9,688 bases of DNA. Source: a virus. Its lineage: Duplodnaviria > Heunggongvirae > Uroviricota > Caudoviricetes. A model generated the notes under the pieces. It did not search any database, was not told where the DNA came from, and saw nothing but the letters and a program-made list of their open reading frames with translations. The first letter of the stretch is position 1. Each line of letters opens with the position of its first letter. The stretch covers positions 1 through 9,688 of IMG/VR virus record IMGVR_UViG_2541047758_000002. One strand, given 5' to 3'. A program made the position numbers and the translations under genes. Positions 2,077-9,688 of this stretch are shown one piece after another.

Positions 2077-2680
2077 TTCGCGCCTGCTGCCGACCGGCTC
2101 ATCACCGCTTGAAGTTGCCGCCGCAAAAGCCTGTGCGGAAATTGAAAAAACGCCGGTCAGTATTCGTGAGCTGTGGAACCCGGACACCTGCCCGGCAAAT
2201 CTGCTGCCGTGGCTGGCGTGGTCATTTTCGGTCGACAGGTGGGATGATAAATGGCCGGAAGCGACCAAACGCGCTGTTATCCGCGATGCGTATTTCATTC
2301 ACTGCCATAAGGGCACTATTGGTGCGATTCGCCGTGTGGTGGAGCCGCTCGGCTATCTGATTGAGGTGAGGGAGTGGTGGCAGCTCAACGAGGAGCCGGG
2401 GACGTTCCGCATCGTTGTTGGCGTGCTTGAGCAGGGTATTACCGAGGAAATGTATCAGGAGCTGGAGCGTCTCGTTGCTGATGCAAAACCTGCAAGCCGC
2501 CATCTGACGGGACTGGCTATCAGTTTAAGTACAACCGGCAACATTTTTGCCGGTGCGGGATGCTATCACGGCGACGCCCTGACGGTTTATCCCTACACCC
2601 CGGAGGCCATTATTGTCGGAGGGGATTATTTCCCGGCCTCGGCCATTCATTTAATTGATAACCTGAGAGTAAACGCATGA
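2069..2680 (+). CDS. I: Baseplate/tail protein I (P2 gpI-like)
   Basis: 203-aa ORF whose ATG at 2069 overlaps the J stop (ATGAGTGA); synteny between J and the tail fibre gene. The start is uncertain because I recall P2 gpI as shorter, but no in-frame internal ATG lies near the expected position. Confidence 0.82.
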   Translation: MSDSRLLPTGSSPLEVAAAKACAEIEKTPVSIRELWNPDTCPANLLPWLAWSFSVDRWDDKWPEATKRAVIRDAYFIHCHKGTIGAIRRVVEPLGYLIEVREWWQLNEEPGTFRIVVGVLEQGITEEMYQELERLVADAKPASRHLTGLAISLSTTGNIFAGAGCYHGDALTVYPYTPEAIIVGGDYFPASAIHLIDNLRVNA

Positions 2681-3957
2681 CAGTGAAATACTACGCCATT
2701 CTGACTAATCAGGGCGCAGCACGGCTGGCTAACGCGACGATGCTCGGCAGTAAGCTGAATCTGACGCAAATGGCCGTTGGTGATGCGAATGGTGTCTTGC
2801 CGACACCAGACCCGGCACAGACAAAACTGATTAACCAGAAACGCATTGCACCGCTGAATCTTCTGAGTGTTGACCCGAATAACCAGAGCCAGATTATTGC
2901 GGAGCAAATCATCCCTGAGAACGAGGGCGGATTCTGGATCCGTGAGATTGGGCTTTATGATGATGAAGGCGTACTCATTGCGGTGGCGAACTGCCCGGAA
3001 ACGTACAAACCGCAGTTGCAGGAAGGCAGCGGTCGTACCCAGACTATCCGCATGATTCTGGTTGTCACGAATACCGAAGCTATCACGCTGAAAATCGACC
3101 CGTCGGTGGTACTGGCGACCCGTAAATACGTGGATGATGAAGTCCTGGAATTAAGGCTGTATGTGGATGACCAGATGAGAAACCATATTGCCGCACAGGA
3201 TCCTCATACCCAGTATGCACAGAAACATAATCCGACATTTACCGGAGAACCAAAAGCGCCGACGCCTGCTGCAGGAAATAACACCACGCGGATTGCGACC
3301 ACTGCGTTTGTTCAGGCGGTTATTACCGCTCTGATTAACGGTGCGCCTGCCACGCTGGATACACTGAAAGAAATTGCCGCAGCCATTAACAATGACCCGA
3401 AATTCAGCACCACCATTAACAATGCGCTGGCAGGTAAACAACCGCTGGACAATACGCTGACTAATTTGAGTGGAAAGGATGTAGCTGGTCTTCTCACATA
3501 CCTTGGAATAGGAGAAACGGGAAAATACGACATTCTGCCAGCATCAAGAGGAGGCACTGGAGCGTCAACTATAGCCGGAGCATTGATAAACTTTGGTCTG
3601 AGTGATTTAGTGACTGCCGGATTAGTACAGGTGGAATCTGGTACAGACTTTATTACTGCTAAGATTCCATTTCTGTCCGGTGGTAGAAAGCGATTCCTGA
3701 TGATACATGCCATCAAGGCGACAATGCCTGCAAATAATAACGGGTATAACCTTACTGTTACATTCCCAACTGCCTATGATAATGCACCGATACCAATTCT
3801 TGGCTCGACCGTAGGGTCGACTTCAACAACGGGTGGTACCACAGAGTCAATGAATATTTCATCAGTCACAAAATCGGGTTGCATCATTTCTTCAGCATGG
3901 CAAACATGGTCTGAGGGACCGGTATATCTTTTAACGATTGGAGGAGTTGCAGCATGA
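2677..3957 (+). CDS. H: Tail fibre protein (P2 gpH-like): constant N-terminal part to about 3503, variable C-terminal part 3505..3957 inside the invertible segment
   Basis: 426-aa ORF with start overlapping the I stop (ATGA). The N-terminus (MTVKYYAILTNQGAARLANA...) is the conserved fibre N-terminal domain shared by P2 H and Mu S-type fibres. The C-terminal third is AT-richer and begins at a hix/gix-like site. Confidence 0.9.
   Translation: MTVKYYAILTNQGAARLANATMLGSKLNLTQMAVGDANGVLPTPDPAQTKLINQKRIAPLNLLSVDPNNQSQIIAEQIIPENEGGFWIREIGLYDDEGVLIAVANCPETYKPQLQEGSGRTQTIRMILVVTNTEAITLKIDPSVVLATRKYVDDEVLELRLYVDDQMRNHIAAQDPHTQYAQKHNPTFTGEPKAPTPAAGNNTTRIATTAFVQAVITALINGAPATLDTLKEIAAAINNDPKFSTTINNALAGKQPLDNTLTNLSGKDVAGLLTYLGIGETGKYDILPASRGGTGASTIAGALINFGLSDLVTAGLVQVESGTDFITAKIPFLSGGRKRFLMIHAIKATMPANNNGYNLTVTFPTAYDNAPIPILGSTVGSTSTTGGTTESMNISSVTKSGCIISSAWQTWSEGPVYLLTIGGVAA
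3491..3516. repeat. Left crossover site of the invertible segment (hix/gix/cix-like 26-bp site), inside the H coding sequence
   Basis: TTCTCACATACC-TT-GGAATAGGAGAA. It matches the reverse complement of the right site (TTTTCTTAAACG-TT-GGTTTAGGAGAA) at 18 of 26 positions, 12 of 14 in the half that lies inside the segment. It has the 12-2-12 architecture of Hin-family recombination sites. Confidence 0.65.
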
Positions 3958-4340
3958 AATATTATTCACCTTCAATTAATGGATTTCCCGAACAAAAGAC
4001 TGATGACAGTATTGAGATCAGTGAAGAGGTCTGGAGAATACTTCTTAGTGAAATTTACTCAGGCCGGGAGTTATTTAACGATGGCGGCGTACCCGCTACC
4101 CGTGTGCCGCAACCTACGCAAGAACAAGTAATTGCAGCCGCAGAAAATGAGCGCCAACGATTGCTGAATTATGCTGATACCGTAATGCTCGACTGGCGTA
4201 CAGAATTGATGCTGGGTGAAATCAGCGACGCCAACAGGGCTAAATTGTCGGCGTGGCTGGCTTATAAAAATCAAGTTAAGTCGGTTGATGTGACAACTGA
4301 CCCTGAGCATGTTAACTGGCCTATTTCCCCGGAGGCGTAG
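3954..4340 (+). CDS. Tail fibre assembly chaperone (P2 gpG / Mu U / Tfa family) for the currently expressed fibre tip
   Basis: 128-aa ORF with start overlapping the H stop (ATGA). Sits immediately downstream of the fibre gene; the C-terminal region (...EHVNWPISPEA) resembles Tfa proteins. Confidence 0.8.
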   Translation: MKYYSPSINGFPEQKTDDSIEISEEVWRILLSEIYSGRELFNDGGVPATRVPQPTQEQVIAAAENERQRLLNYADTVMLDWRTELMLGEISDANRAKLSAWLAYKNQVKSVDVTTDPEHVNWPISPEA

Positions 4341-4752
4341 GCCATTCAATATCTGGCGCACCGGAAGTATCGACCAGTTCCAGTGCGTCCAGATAATCCA
4401 GCCACGAATTATATTGCGCCAGTTCCTCTCCTTTCAGACGACCAATCGCCGCTTTACCAGGCCATTGCTTACTGTTTATGTATTCGTTGACCTGATTAAT
4501 CAATTGCTGCTTTTCCAGTTCGGCTGCGGCAATTTGTTCCTCATGAGTTGGCGGTGGAATATCAATCCATGCTGGCATTCCGTCGATGACACCTCTGTAT
4601 TTTCCTTCTGGTGCTTCCTTCATAAATTCGGCGGCAACAGTGTCGTCAATTTCGATTCCATCATCGGGCCATTCGCCGGATTCCTGATAAGCGATTTTAA
4701 GCTCCACAGGGAAAAACGCATTTTTCTCGGCACTGAAAATATATTTCTGCAT
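4321..4752 (-). CDS. Alternative tail fibre assembly chaperone (Mu U'-like), partner of the silent fibre cassette
   Basis: 143-aa ORF on the - strand, starting 2 nt after the stop of the silent fibre cassette. The C-terminus (...DIEWPTPPGK) is Tfa-like. Its 3' end overlaps the + strand chaperone gene by 20 nt. Confidence 0.8.
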   Translation of the reverse strand: MQKYIFSAEKNAFFPVELKIAYQESGEWPDDGIEIDDTVAAEFMKEAPEGKYRGVIDGMPAWIDIPPPTHEEQIAAAELEKQQLINQVNEYINSKQWPGKAAIGRLKGEELAQYNSWLDYLDALELVDTSGAPDIEWPTPPGK

Positions 4753-4754
4753 TT

Positions 4755-5111
4755 CTACCGTCCTATCGAAATATAACTGAATCTGTATTGCTGTGAGATA
4801 TCACTGGTTGCCACACGCCACGCTGAATTACTGATATGTTCAAAATTTACAGACAAAACCTGCGGGGCAGGATTCGACGGGTCTGACTGAACGGCATCAG
4901 ACATAACACTGACTGAAACCATCGGCTGATTAGGGAATGGTATAGGGAAGTGTCCACTGATAAAGCGGGTCGTGTTTCCTGAAAAAGTGCCAAACTGAAC
5001 AATATATCCACCTGGTAGCCTGAACCATCCCGAACCAGAAGCGAATGCTCCCATATCAGGTATCTGATTATCTCCTGTGCCCACATCCCTTTTCGCCGCT
5101 TCTCCTAAACC
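4755..5111 (-). CDS. Silent alternative tail-fibre C-terminal cassette (Mu S'v-like); lacks its own start and would be expressed only after inversion fuses it to the constant part of H
   Basis: - strand reading frame open from the right crossover site to TAG at 4757..4755. Its first codons after the crossover core (GLGEAAK...) parallel the H codons after the left core (GIGETGK...). Frame arithmetic shows an in-frame fusion after inversion. Confidence 0.7.
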   Translation of the reverse strand, partial: GLGEAAKRDVGTGDNQIPDMGAFASGSGWFRLPGGYIVQFGTFSGNTTRFISGHFPIPFPNQPMVSVSVMSDAVQSDPSNPAPQVLSVNFEHISNSAWRVATSDISQQYRFSYISIGR

Positions 5112-5125
5112 AACGTTTAAGAAAA
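5100..5125. repeat. Right crossover site of the invertible segment (hix/gix/cix-like)
   Basis: TTCTCCTAAACC-AA-CGTTTAAGAAAA. Close to the Hin-family half-site consensus TTxTCxxAAACC with a 2-bp AA core, inverted relative to the left site (core TT on the + strand). Lies 55 bp upstream of the invertase start. Confidence 0.7.
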
Positions 5126-5180
5126 TGCAGAGGTAACAGCTAACTGGCATCATCCCCGGTTTTTATTCAGGGGGATAATC

Positions 5181-5774
5181 ATGCTTATTGGCTATGTACG
5201 CGTGTCAACAAATGACCAGAACACGGAATTGCAGCGTAACGCGCTGGAGTGTGCAGGATGTGAGCTGATTTTTGAGGATAAAATCAGCGGCACGAAGTCC
5301 GACAGGCCGGGACTGAAAAAACTGCTCAGAACATTATCAGCAGGTGACACTCTGGTGGTCTGGAAGCTGGACAGGCTGGGGCGTAGTATGCGGCATCTGG
5401 TCATTCTGGTTGAGGAACTGCGCGAACGCGGCGTTAATTTTCGCAGCCTGACGGATGCTATTGATACCAGCACGCCGATGGGGCGTTTTTTCTTTCATGT
5501 GATGGGTGCCCTGGCTGAAATGGAGCGAGAACTCATTGTCGAGCGGACACGCGCCGGACTGGAAGCGGCCAGAGCCAAAGGTCGTATTGGTGGCGGACGA
5601 CCGAAACTCACTGCGGGTGAGTGGGAGCAGGTCGGACGGTTGCTGGCTGCGGGGGAATCTCGTCAACGTGTGGCGCTGATTTTTGATATTGGTCTGTCCA
5701 CGCTCTATAAAAAATTCCCCTCATCAGCGACAAAGAATAAATTGTGTCATCCCTTAGCCAACCGGGACAAATAG
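5181..5774 (+). CDS. Site-specific serine DNA invertase (Hin/Gin/Cin/Pin family resolvase-invertase)
   Basis: 197-aa ORF; N-terminus MLIGYVRVSTNDQNTELQRNAL... carries the serine-recombinase catalytic motif (YVRVST) and the ...DRLGRS... region; C-terminal helix-turn-helix (...GLSTLYKKFP). Shine-Dalgarno GGGGGA lies 5 nt upstream. Adjacent to the invertible segment. Confidence 0.92.
   Translation: MLIGYVRVSTNDQNTELQRNALECAGCELIFEDKISGTKSDRPGLKKLLRTLSAGDTLVVWKLDRLGRSMRHLVILVEELRERGVNFRSLTDAIDTSTPMGRFFFHVMGALAEMERELIVERTRAGLEAARAKGRIGGGRPKLTAGEWEQVGRLLAAGESRQRVALIFDIGLSTLYKKFPSSATKNKLCHPLANRDK
5742..5763 (+). promoter_or_regulatory. Candidate late-promoter activator site upstream of FI, overlapping the 3' end of the invertase gene
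   Basis: TTGTGTCATCCCTTAGCCAACC about 90 nt upstream of the FI start; shares TTGTG-CAT-CC with the motif upstream of V. Confidence 0.3.
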
Positions 5775-5833
5775 CCTGACATCTCCGGCACAACTGAAAA
5801 TACCACTCACCCATTAACCACGGAGTTAAACGG

Positions 5834-7024
5834 ATGAGTGACTATCATCACGGCGTGCAGGTGCTGGAGATTAACGACGGCACCCGCGTCATTTCCACCG
5901 TATCCACTGCCATTGTTGGCATGGTCTGCACGGCCAGCGATGCGGATGCGGAAACCTTCCCCCTCAATAAACCGGTGCTGATTACCAATGTGCAGAGCGC
6001 AATTGCAAAGGCCGGTAAAAAAGGCACGCTGGCGGCATCGTTGCAGGCCATCGCCGACCAGTCAAAACCGGTCACCGTTGTCGTGCGTGTGGAAGACGGC
6101 ACCGGCGACGACGAGGAAACGAAACTCGCGCAGACCGTTTCCAATATCATCGGCACCACCGACGAAAACGGTCAGTACACCGGACTGAAAGCCCTGCTGG
6201 CGGCGGAGTCGGTAACCGGTGTTAAACCGCGTATTCTCGGCGTGCCGGGACTGGACACCAAAGAGGTGGCGGTTGCACTGGCATCAGTATGTCAGAAGCT
6301 GCGCGCTTTCGGGTATATCAGCGCATGGGGCTGTAAAACCATTTCCGAGGTGAAAGCCTACCGCCAGAATTTCAGCCAGCGTGAGCTGATGGTCATCTGG
6401 CCGGATTTCCTCGCATGGGATACGGTCACCAGTACCACCGCCACCGCGTATGCCACTGCCCGTGCACTGGGCCTGCGCGCTAAAATCGACCAGGAGCAGG
6501 GCTGGCATAAAACGCTGTCCAATGTCGGGGTGAACGGTGTTACCGGCATCAGCGCATCTGTATTCTGGGATTTGCAGGAGTCCGGCACCGATGCTGACCT
6601 GCTTAACGAGTCAGGCGTCACAACGCTGATTCGCCGTGACGGTTTCCGCTTCTGGGGTAACCGTACCTGTTCTGATGACCCGCTGTTCCTCTTTGAAAAC
6701 TACACCCGCACCGCGCAGGTGCTGGCCGATACGATGGCTGAGGCGCACATGTGGGCGGTGGACAAGCCCATCACCGCAACGCTGATTCGCGACATCGTTG
6801 ACGGCATCAATGCCAAATTCCGTGAGCTGAAAACAAACGGCTATATCGTGGATGCGACCTGCTGGTTCAGCGAAGAATCCAACGATGCGGAAACCCTTAA
6901 GGCCGGAAAACTGTATATCGACTACGACTATACCCCGGTGCCTCCTCTTGAAAACCTGACCCTGCGCCAGCGTATTACCGATAAATACCTGGCAAATCTG
7001 GTCACCTCGGTTAACAGCAATTAA
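5834..7024 (+). CDS. FI: Contractile tail sheath protein (P2 gpFI-like)
   Basis: 396-aa ORF, the same length as P2 FI; GGAG ribosome-binding site upstream; followed by the tube gene. Confidence 0.92.
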   Translation: MSDYHHGVQVLEINDGTRVISTVSTAIVGMVCTASDADAETFPLNKPVLITNVQSAIAKAGKKGTLAASLQAIADQSKPVTVVVRVEDGTGDDEETKLAQTVSNIIGTTDENGQYTGLKALLAAESVTGVKPRILGVPGLDTKEVAVALASVCQKLRAFGYISAWGCKTISEVKAYRQNFSQRELMVIWPDFLAWDTVTSTTATAYATARALGLRAKIDQEQGWHKTLSNVGVNGVTGISASVFWDLQESGTDADLLNESGVTTLIRRDGFRFWGNRTCSDDPLFLFENYTRTAQVLADTMAEAHMWAVDKPITATLIRDIVDGINAKFRELKTNGYIVDATCWFSEESNDAETLKAGKLYIDYDYTPVPPLENLTLRQRITDKYLANLVTSVNSN

Positions 7025-7036
7025 GGAGCCTGACCG

Positions 7037-7555
7037 ATGGCAATGCCGCGCAAACTCAAGTTAATGAACGTCTTTCTGAACGGCTACAGCTATCAGGGCG
7101 TTGCAAAGTCCGTCACGCTGCCAAAACTGACCCGTAAGCTCGAAAACTATCGCGGTGCGGGGATGAACGGCAGCGCACCGGTAGACCTCGGCCTTGATGA
7201 CGATGCGCTGTCAATGGAGTGGTCGCTCGGGGGCTTCCCGGATTCGGTTATCTGGGAGCTTTACGCCGCAACCGGTGTGGATGCCGTGCCGATTCGTTTT
7301 GCAGGCTCTTACCAGCGCGACGATACCGGCGAAACGGTGGCCGTCGAAGTGGTCATGCGTGGGCGTCAGAAAGAAGTCGACACCGGCGAGGGTAAACAGG
7401 GAGAAGATACCGAGTCGAAAATCTCCGTGGTCTGCACCTATTTCCGGCTGACGATGGACGGTAAGGGGCTGGTCGAAATTGACACCATCAACATGATTGA
7501 GAAGGTGAACGGCGTCGACCGGCTGGAGCAACACCGCCGCAATATCGGCCTGTGA
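7037..7555 (+). CDS. FII: Tail tube protein (P2 gpFII-like)
   Basis: 172-aa ORF, the same length as P2 FII; strong AGGAG ribosome-binding site at about 7024..7028; synteny after the sheath gene. Confidence 0.92.
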   Translation: MAMPRKLKLMNVFLNGYSYQGVAKSVTLPKLTRKLENYRGAGMNGSAPVDLGLDDDALSMEWSLGGFPDSVIWELYAATGVDAVPIRFAGSYQRDDTGETVAVEVVMRGRQKEVDTGEGKQGEDTESKISVVCTYFRLTMDGKGLVEIDTINMIEKVNGVDRLEQHRRNIGL

Positions 7556-8039: not shown

Positions 8040-9688
8040 CAATGTAAAATTACAGGTATTGCTCAGGGCTGTTGACCAGGCATCCCGCCCGTTTAAATCC
8101 ATCCGCACAGCGAGTAAGTCGCTGTCGGGGGATATCCGGGAAACACAAAAATCACTGCGCGAGCTGAACGGTCACGCATCCCGTATTGAGGGATTTCGCA
8201 AGACCAGTGCACAGCTCGCCGTGACTGGTCATGCACTTGAAAAGGCACGGCAGGAGGCCGAAGCCCTTGCCACACAGTTTAAAAATACCGAACGACCGAC
8301 CCGTGCTCAGGCGAAAGTGCTGGAATCCGCAAAGCGTGCGGTGGAGGACTTACAGGCGAAATATAACCGCCTGACGGATTCCGTTAAACGCCAGCAGCGG
8401 GAACTGGCCGCTGTGGGAATTAATACCCGCAATCTTGCACATGATGAGCAGGGACTGAAAAAACGTATCAGTGAAACCACCGCACAACTTAACCGTCAGC
8501 GCGACGCGCTGGCGCGTGTCAGTGCGCAACAGGCAAAACTTAACGCAGTAAAACAGCGTTATCAGGCCGGAAAGGAACTGGCCGGAAATATGGCCTCAGT
8601 AGGCGCTGCCGGTGTGGGGATTGCGGCGGCGGGAACGATGGCCGGAGTTAAGTTACTGATGCCCGGTTATGAGTTTGCGCAGAAAAACTCAGAATTGCAG
8701 GCCGTGCTCGGAGTGGCAAAAGACTCCGCCGAAATGACCGCACTACGCAAGCAGGCGCGCCAGCTTGGCGACAACACCGCCGCCTCGGCGGATGATGCAG
8801 CCGGTGCGCAGATTATCATTGCGAAAGCCGGCGGGGATGTTGATGCCATTCAGGCGGCAACGCCGGTCACGCTGAATATGGCGCTGGCGAACCGTCGCAC
8901 GATGGAAGAAAACGCCGCCCTGTTGATGGGGATGAAATCCGCCTTTCAGCTTTCAAACGATAAGGTCGCTCATATCGGGGATGTTCTCTCCATGACGATG
9001 AACAAAACCGCCGCCGATTTTGACGGCATGAGCGATGCGCTGACCTATGCCGCACCTGTGGCAAAAAATGCCGGTGTCAGCATTGAAGAAACCGCCGCAA
9101 TGGTCGGGGCGCTGCATGATGCAAAAATTACCGGTTCAATGGCGGGGACGGGAAGCCGTGCCGTGTTAAGCCGTCTGCAGGCACCGACGGGAAAAGCATG
9201 GGATGCACTGAAAGAGCTTGGTGTGAAAACCTCAGACAGCAAGGGAAACACCCGGCCAATATTTACCATTCTGAAAGAAATGCAGGCCAGTTTTGAGAAA
9301 AACCGGCTCGGTACTGCCCAGCAGGCTGAATACATGAAAACTATTTTCGGGGAGGAGGCCAGCTCAGCCGCCGCCGTGCTGATGACTGCCGCCTCAACCG
9401 GAAAGCTGGACAAACTGACCGCTGCGTTTAAAGCCTCGGACGGGAAGACCGCCGAGCTGGTAAATATCATGCAGGACAACCTCGGCGGTGACTTTAAAGA
9501 GTTTCAGTCCGCTTATGAGGCGGTGGGGACTGACCTGTTTGACCAGCAGGAAGGCGCACTGCGTAATCTCACACAGACGGCCACAAAGTATGTGTTAAAA
9601 CTCGATGGCTGGATCCAGAAAAACAAATCACTGGCGTCAACCATCGGCCTCATTGCCGGTGGCGCACTGGCGCTTACTGGCATCATCG
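8032..9688 (+). CDS. T: Tail tape measure protein (P2 gpT-like), N-terminal 552 codons; continues past the window end
   Basis: ATG at 8032 inside the E' stop (AATGAGTAA). The frame stays open to the window end (MSNNVKLQVLLRAVDQASRPFK...). Coiled-coil-like, Ala/Gln-rich composition typical of tape measure proteins; synteny after E/E'. Confidence 0.9.
   Translation, partial: MSNNVKLQVLLRAVDQASRPFKSIRTASKSLSGDIRETQKSLRELNGHASRIEGFRKTSAQLAVTGHALEKARQEAEALATQFKNTERPTRAQAKVLESAKRAVEDLQAKYNRLTDSVKRQQRELAAVGINTRNLAHDEQGLKKRISETTAQLNRQRDALARVSAQQAKLNAVKQRYQAGKELAGNMASVGAAGVGIAAAGTMAGVKLLMPGYEFAQKNSELQAVLGVAKDSAEMTALRKQARQLGDNTAASADDAAGAQIIIAKAGGDVDAIQAATPVTLNMALANRRTMEENAALLMGMKSAFQLSNDKVAHIGDVLSMTMNKTAADFDGMSDALTYAAPVAKNAGVSIEETAAMVGALHDAKITGSMAGTGSRAVLSRLQAPTGKAWDALKELGVKTSDSKGNTRPIFTILKEMQASFEKNRLGTAQQAEYMKTIFGEEASSAAAVLMTAASTGKLDKLTAAFKASDGKTAELVNIMQDNLGGDFKEFQSAYEAVGTDLFDQQEGALRNLTQTATKYVLKLDGWIQKNKSLASTIGLIAGGALALTGII

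Follow-up and report, generated by a model that had tools for sequence, protein, structure and literature searches.

The window, by which we mean the whole stretch of 9,688 nucleotides that was analysed, is the tail module of a P2-like prophage, with baseplate genes J and I on the + strand. Among phage records, the nearest are those of P2-like Salmonella, E. coli and Klebsiella phages in which a DNA invertase is annotated between the fibre genes and the sheath gene. The genes and recombination features at the locus are as follows.

2677-3957, + strand: tail fibre gene of the P2 gpH type, 426 aa in its current form (Pfam Phage_tail_fib, E 2.4e-62)
3491-3516, no strand assigned: left crossover site TTCTCACATACC-TT-GGAATAGGAGAA (in full TTCTCACATACCTTGGAATAGGAGAA), inside the tail-fibre H reading frame
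3503-5113, no strand assigned: invertible segment of 1.6 kb, between the central dinucleotides
3954-4340, + strand: tail fibre assembly protein, current orientation (Pfam Caudo_TAP, E 1.1e-19)
4321-4752, - strand: alternative tail fibre assembly protein, silent orientation (Pfam Caudo_TAP, E 9.8e-35)
4755-5112, - strand: alternative tail-fibre C-terminal segment, without a start of its own (Pfam Gp53-like_C, E 3e-09)
5100-5125, no strand assigned: right crossover site TTCTCCTAAACC-AA-CGTTTAAGAAAA, located by exact match and matrix score
5100-5111: inner half of the right site, coding on the - strand, moving with the segment
5112-5113: AA core of the right site
5114-5125: outer half of the right site, fixed and non-coding
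5181-5774, + strand: serine DNA invertase, 197 aa (Pfam Resolvase, 2.9e-52; HTH_7, 4e-11)
~5199-5270, no strand assigned: putative recombinational enhancer, by homology to the P1 enhancer
5834-7024, + strand: tail sheath gene
7037-7555, + strand: tail tube gene

The gene adjacent to the right site encodes a small serine invertase with a resolvase catalytic domain, the catalytic serine and a C-terminal HTH_7 domain. Its N-terminus reads MLIGYVRVST, with the serine at position 9 and VRVST at residues 6-10, and residues 1-182 match the Gin structure 3UJ3 with an E value of 1.5e-92. Across the first 120 nt of the gene, the window, e14, Mu and P1 have a mean column identity of 88%, and blastn with Mu and P1 detects just the 5' part of the invertase gene. 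In the P1 record the enhancer is annotated at nt 19-90 of cin, a stretch covered by these conserved 120 nt, and the enhancer homologue was therefore placed at ~5199-5270. The conserved 5' region is thus a candidate enhancer, and any Fis sites within it are putative. At the other end of the gene, P2-type phages without an invertase align to the window from 5742 onward only (region 5742-5833), so that the invertase cassette must terminate, on its right, within the 3' end of the invertase ORF. P2 backbone sequence supplies the last ~11 codons of the invertase, which extend its C-terminus past the ~182 residues it has in common with Gin. The P2 late promoter of the sheath operon should lie in this stretch of P2 backbone, just upstream of the sheath gene.

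The right site occupies 5100-5125 exactly as the 26-mer TTCTCCTAAACCAACGTTTAAGAAAA, for which 200 shuffles gave 0 matches. It fits the pattern of Hin, Gin, Cin and Pin sites, in which a core of 2 bp is flanked by two imperfect inverted half-sites of 12 bp each (26 bp in total), and its halves, TTCTCCTAAACC and TTTTCTTAAACG as reverse complement, are identical at 9 of their 12 positions. Invertase-proximal sites from 18 other lineages were used to construct a half-site matrix, under which the right site ranks first among 9663 positions with 31.5 bits. The left site at 3491-3516 ranks second of the same 9663 with 15.7 bits, in a comparison that may favour the right site because of the origin of the matrix. 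The next best position reaches only -0.8, so that the window contains exactly two sites. The left site lies in inverted orientation, its TT core being the complement of the AA core on the right. The identification of 5100-5125 as a genuine crossover site of the Hin/Gin family, given in a preliminary description of this DNA, is thereby confirmed, as is the claim that the right site is a better match than the left, with the stated bias of the matrix towards invertase-proximal sites. Between the right site and the invertase ATG at 5181 lie 55 nt (5126-5180), in agreement with the distance previously given.

The segment delimited by the two cores encodes, on its + strand, the fibre C-terminus now in use together with the matching assembly protein and, on its - strand, an alternative pair, whereas the constant part of tail fibre H extends up to ~3502. 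When the segment was inverted in silico at the central AA/TT, the fibre N-terminus (...GLLTYLG) was fused in frame to the - strand segment (LGEAAKRDVG...), yielding a fibre of 394 aa with the alternative C-terminus. Core exchange in silico hence produces two functional gene arrangements. The proximal junction after inversion reads TTCTCCTATTCC-AA-CGTTTAAGAAAA. As the strong inner half-site TTCTCCTAAACC travels with the segment, inversion also swaps site quality, with the proximal site dropping from 31.5 to 19.1 bits and the distal site gaining from 15.7 to 28.0. Taken together, these data identify 5100-5125 as the crossover site proximal to the invertase (gixR/pix type) in a Gin/Pin-type tail-fibre switch of a P2-like prophage, and the locus is an ordinary member of the well-known Gin/Pin (Mu/e14-type) family of tail-fibre inversion switches. 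The invertase encoded 55 nt downstream would bind the right site and its partner at 3491-3516 and, with the enhancer in the 5' end of its own gene, would invert the 1.6-kb segment, swapping the fibre C-terminus together with the assembly protein. The steps from site binding to fibre swap can either be traced in the letters themselves or would follow from close homology. The P2-like prophage accordingly appears to carry a standard, probably active host-range switch, although little depends on that finding.

A broader view of the switch was obtained from 159 related loci gathered from genomes and viral contigs. In about 85 related loci, all with an invertase at least 79% identical to that of the window, 53-55 nt separate the crossover site from the start codon downstream; some lineages have spacers of 43-79 nt. 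Two pairs of public contigs from the invertase lineage of the window contain the segment in opposite orientation with unchanged flanks: in L088 and L083 it is 99.9% identical as reverse complement over 1841 bp, and in L107 and L140 it is 99.6% identical as reverse complement. A one-base difference between L088 and L083, at the outer end of the inner half-site, moves together with the segment, and the exchange must therefore fall between that base and the outer half-site. Moreover, seven draft-genome contigs from different genera (L004, L006, L007, L010, L015, L019 and L139) have their end within the site's inner half, at a distance of 73-125 nt upstream of the start of the invertase gene. Contig ends of this kind indicate that both orientations were present in the cultures sequenced, since assemblers break there. 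For e14, inversion of the P segment at CCTTCTCCCAAACCAA has been observed experimentally, and the segment becomes locked when pinE is deleted (PMC12529663). Complete E. coli genomes do not contain the inverted junction of the window itself; no full-length match was found in them, and matches begin at the site, so that for the window copy inversion is something we infer. The start of these matches at the site also indicates that, in complete E. coli genomes, the + strand fibre module is not paired with this cassette.

Two further observations on these loci deserve mention. In L146 (1332-2105), the alternative fibre end and assembly module of the window is present at 93.5% identity in the opposite orientation and does not adjoin the invertase gene, so that the invertible region of this prophage may be larger or contain several modules. 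Loci such as L036-L059 and similar ones have ~63% identity to the invertase, carry an identical upstream AGATCGTACACCCACGAAGAAGTGAT 42 nt before the start in unrelated genera, and have no gix-like site upstream. Such matches probably represent a widespread transposon or plasmid resolvase unrelated to fibre switching.

Among characterized systems, the element e14 of E. coli K-12 is particularly close. Its site TTCTCCCAAACCAACGTTTATGAAAA differs from TTCTCCTAAACCAACGTTTAAGAAAA of the window at two positions, its spacer, which hardly differs from that of the window, measures 54 nt as against 55, and TGGCATCAT, the T-run and the G-rich ribosome site are common to both spacers. PinE is ~86% identical to the window invertase, and gene order is alike in the two, with fibre, assembly protein, inverted assembly protein, inverted fibre end and invertase. 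On the other hand, e14 is a defective element whereas in the window a tail module of the P2 type continues downstream into sheath and tube genes, and the variable fibre modules of e14 are unlike those of the window. In Mu, a phage of another type than the P2-like window, gixR ends 54 nt before the start of gin, and the spacer has TGGCATGAT at the offset of the window's motif. The strong match of the window invertase to Gin extends to a conserved, enhancer-bearing 5' gene region, but the core dinucleotide of Mu is GA instead of AA, and the rest of its spacer has diverged. P1 shares with the window a homologous invertase, the enhancer and the logic of the fibre switch. Unlike in the window, however, cin lies on the other side of the segment and reads toward the C segment. 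According to the P1 genome annotation, the 3' end of cin, whose CDS ends at 32220, lies within cixL (32215-32234), and the two predicted cin promoters are located upstream, beside lydC, without a cix site. P1 is thus not a precedent for a promoter over the proximal site and is removed as such. Of the proposal that the invertase promoter overlaps the proximal site in both Mu and P1, the Mu half agrees with the position of gixR 54 nt before gin and the P1 half has to be dropped.

The spacer between the right site and the invertase gene may hold signals for expression of the gene. The + strand of 4700-5900 yielded nothing in a scan for canonical sigma70 consensus promoters, nor did the surroundings of the gene when 3400-5900 was scanned, which bears out the earlier remark that a convincing sigma70 -35/-10 pair is not evident in 5126-5180. 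The following elements were nevertheless recognized in the spacer.

5125-5130, + strand: putative hexamer ATGCAG at the -35 position, a poor 2/6 match overlapping the last base of the site
5145-5153, + strand: extended -10-like motif TGgCATCAT, with TG at 5145-5146 and the hexamer at 5148-5153
5159-5161, + strand: predicted transcript start, derived from the -10 position alone
5170-5175, + strand: Shine-Dalgarno-like GGGGGA, read from the sequence, within a G-rich block kept in relatives

When eight diverged spacers were compared (window, SEN8, e14 group, P88, L013, Mu, L008 and 613R3), most positions were found to have drifted and four blocks to have been kept: TG after the site, TGGCAT..T at spacer positions 20-28, (G)CTTTT, and the G-rich ribosome site. 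TGGCAT..T (5145-5153 in the window) is the best-conserved of these blocks, with 1.78 bits per column versus 0.63 for the preceding 19 nt. The TG at 5126-5127, which corresponds to positions 2-3 of the -35 hexamer, is invariant in all eight, and the distance from the hexamer at the -35 position to CATCAT is exactly 17 bp. The window motif has TG at -15/-14 as well as A2 and T6, with a hexamer matching at 4 of 6 positions. The skeleton of such an extended -10 element, TGnNANNNT, occurs in 17 of the 24 distinct clusters of spacers, and 10 of these 17 have it exactly 19 nt downstream of the site; the upstream TG, the hexamer A2 and T6 persist where the hexamer varies (CATGAT, CATTAT, CACAAT, AAAAAT, TATGAT). 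By chance, an extended -10-like motif arises in 6% of spacer shuffles and about once per 1000 nt per strand, so that its occurrence alone is not significant. The predicted start at 5159-5161 falls at the edge of a conserved T-run after a G+C-rich stretch, and its base would be T, which is unusual for a start. A terminator-like hairpin at 5142-5161 reported by a scan was rejected, as its stem is weak and it is not kept in relatives. A second exact TGGCATCAT occurs at 9678-9686, at the end of the window and inside coding sequence, and was taken as coincidence.

An extended -10 promoter of the invertase gene's own within the spacer is, on the sequence, the best-supported and a plausible reading of these data. 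The 55-nt spacer would hold a weak sigma70 promoter consisting of TGgCATCAT and the poor -35 element ATGCAG, with transcription starting at ~5160. Such a promoter would free invertase expression in the prophage from dependence on the late fibre operon. Indeed, pinE is clearly expressed in the defective e14 without phage late functions, since its deletion locks the segment (PMC12529663), and upstream fibre modules vary among relatives while the spacer is conserved with the gene. We put the probability of the explanation as a whole, i.e. a Gin/Pin-type switch site followed by a weak extended -10 sigma70 promoter in the spacer, with possible self-damping, at about one half. A sigma70 promoter does not account for the conserved G+C-rich stretch and G(C)TTTT downstream, and the invariant G and C within TGGCAT exceed the needs of an extended -10 element.

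How Gin/Pin-type invertases are kept at very low levels sets the switching rate, and a compact spacer motif conserved from Mu through e14 to P2-like prophages may bear on the control of invertase level. In the preliminary description it was suggested that invertase expression may be autoregulated by occupancy of the site. Numbered from a start at ~5160, the site spans ~-61 to -36. It ends at 5125 and overlaps the putative -35 hexamer at 5125-5130 by 1 bp, and this contact between the site and the -35 position of the promoter-like element makes repression by occupancy geometrically plausible. An invertase dimer on the outer half-site would abut both the -35 region and the stretch farther upstream that RNA polymerase contacts, and could thereby dampen the invertase's own synthesis; we regard this as a geometric possibility only. 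Extended -10 promoters rely little on -35 contact, which weakens a simple occlusion model. Serine recombinases are known to repress their own genes, as for Tn3/gamma-delta resolvase at res and Hin at hixL. In these precedents for self-repression, like here, a serine recombinase site lies immediately upstream of the recombinase's own gene. Since the strong inner half-site leaves the proximal site upon inversion (31.5 to 19.1 bits), self-repression, should there be any, would be expected to differ between orientations and bias the switch.

The conserved spacer can also be read in ways that involve no promoter next to the gene. Thus, the invertase could be transcribed from upstream, either from weak + strand starts inside the segment, and hence in an orientation-dependent manner, or by read-through from the late fibre operon, with the conserved spacer bases acting in RNA. 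Pairing of GGCAU with the AUG and of UCCCC with the Shine-Dalgarno sequence would then limit translation, much as IS10 is protected against outside transcripts. The start-site table of Kim et al. 2012 (PMC3415461) fits an upstream origin, as the only + strand starts it lists for K-12 pinE, at very low depth, are two within the invertible segment, at distances of 340 and 536 nt from the gene; the 100 nt preceding the gene contain no listed start. These K-12 data weakly lean toward a far-upstream transcript, the outcome that had been named in advance as speaking against autoregulation at the site, but the calls rest on 4 reads each. In the part of the Cappable-seq source that was accessible (PMC4782308), no match near the pinE coordinates appears among the matches listed, and SMRT-Cappable-seq has no entry for e14 pinE. 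No convincing + strand terminator was found between 4340 and 5100, in favour of transcription from upstream; yet upstream segments vary in relatives and the spacer is conserved with the gene. As for the RNA, the minimum-energy fold of the window (-20.6 kcal/mol) pairs 5146-5150 with the AUG and 5152-5157 with GGGGAU of the ribosome site, 8 of 19 folded relatives have the motif's CAU paired with the AUG, and one pair changes from U-A/U-G to C-G in the consensus fold. This fold is no better than those of shuffled sequences, however, with a z score of -1.7 for the window and mostly -1.7 to +0.9 in the 19 relatives. The consensus retains 7 pairs at -1.85 kcal/mol with a compensatory change from a single clade, the pairing of CAU with AUG is trivial, and Rfam reports nothing in 4900-5900. 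We consider transcription from upstream combined with such an RNA role rather unlikely. The same bases might instead serve as contacts for the recombination machinery or for a host DNA-bending protein and not as expression signals, contacts being needed because site and enhancer are just ~90-100 bp apart. In favour of this role, both the 53-55 nt spacer length and the distance from site to enhancer are tightly conserved, and the TG that immediately follows the site is invariant. Spacers in some lineages measure 43-79 nt, though, no known binding consensus was matched by eye, and the left site is without an equivalent flank. Gin and Hin are not known to demand such spacer contacts, and we judge this role distinctly improbable.

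A different kind of expression signal is suggested by the conserved pattern TGGCAT-N7-GC(T)TTT, which may be taken for a sigma54 -24/-12 element that renders the invertase sigma54-dependent or gates it through a silent closed complex. Bonocora et al. 2015 (PMC4591121, S2 Table) list a K-12 sigma54 ChIP-seq peak centred at 1208878, 30 nt before pinE. Its motif ATGGCATCATTCCTGCTT (L163 4650-4667) lies between the pix site and pinE, coincides with the e14 spacer motif and is a predicted promoter in EcoCyc (PMC4591121). The peak belongs to a low-stringency set for which the threshold was lowered five-fold, reaches only 3 on that scale, and pinE is absent from the other supplementary tables of the paper, including that of genes changed by sigma54 overexpression (PMC4591121). 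The GG-N10-GC signature is kept in e14, Mu, P88, SEN8, L119, L008, L013 and L018, and also in ENT90, L004, L007, L010 and L139. With a matrix derived from the other 148 ChIP motifs (PMC4591121; training-set minimum 5.6 bits), e14 and P88 score 12.2 bits each and L013 11.9, near the training-set median, while Mu scores 8.7 and several others ~7.5. Scores of at least 12 arise twice by chance in the 9.7-kb window, however. Both the -24 GG and the -12 GC are present in e14-type relatives, and the presence of this GC in the e14 spacer sets it apart from the window, where the GG is present and the corresponding sequence CTGGCATCATCCCCGGTT has GG instead of GC at the -12 position and scores -1.7 bits (rank 445 of 19342 positions). 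The whole group with 55-nt spacers, which includes the window (56 of 102 loci), is without the -12 GC, yet has intact invertase genes and inversion. Moreover, no activator protein or site is evident. For the window, control by sigma54 was therefore rejected on the score of -1.7 bits and the missing -12 GC; it is retained as a low-probability idea for e14-type relatives, and as a general explanation of the conserved motif it is extremely unlikely. One may also envisage that both signals are superimposed, a weak sigma70 extended -10 element being overlaid by a sigma54 -24/-12 element at which the holoenzyme, bound but silent or driven by some activator, gates invertase synthesis and with it the switching rate. 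Such a dual signal, which we hold to be very unlikely, would make the lineage of the window, having lost the -12 GC, a natural variant freed from the sigma54 gate.

A - strand start is also listed by Kim et al. 2012 (PMC3415461) at K-12 position 1208967 (U00096.2), with 7 reads, inside the 5' end of pinE and in the enhancer region. Mapped through L163 it corresponds to ~5240 of the window, and it reads back over the spacer and the site into the silent fibre segment. If real, the transcript from this start would be antisense to the invertase leader.
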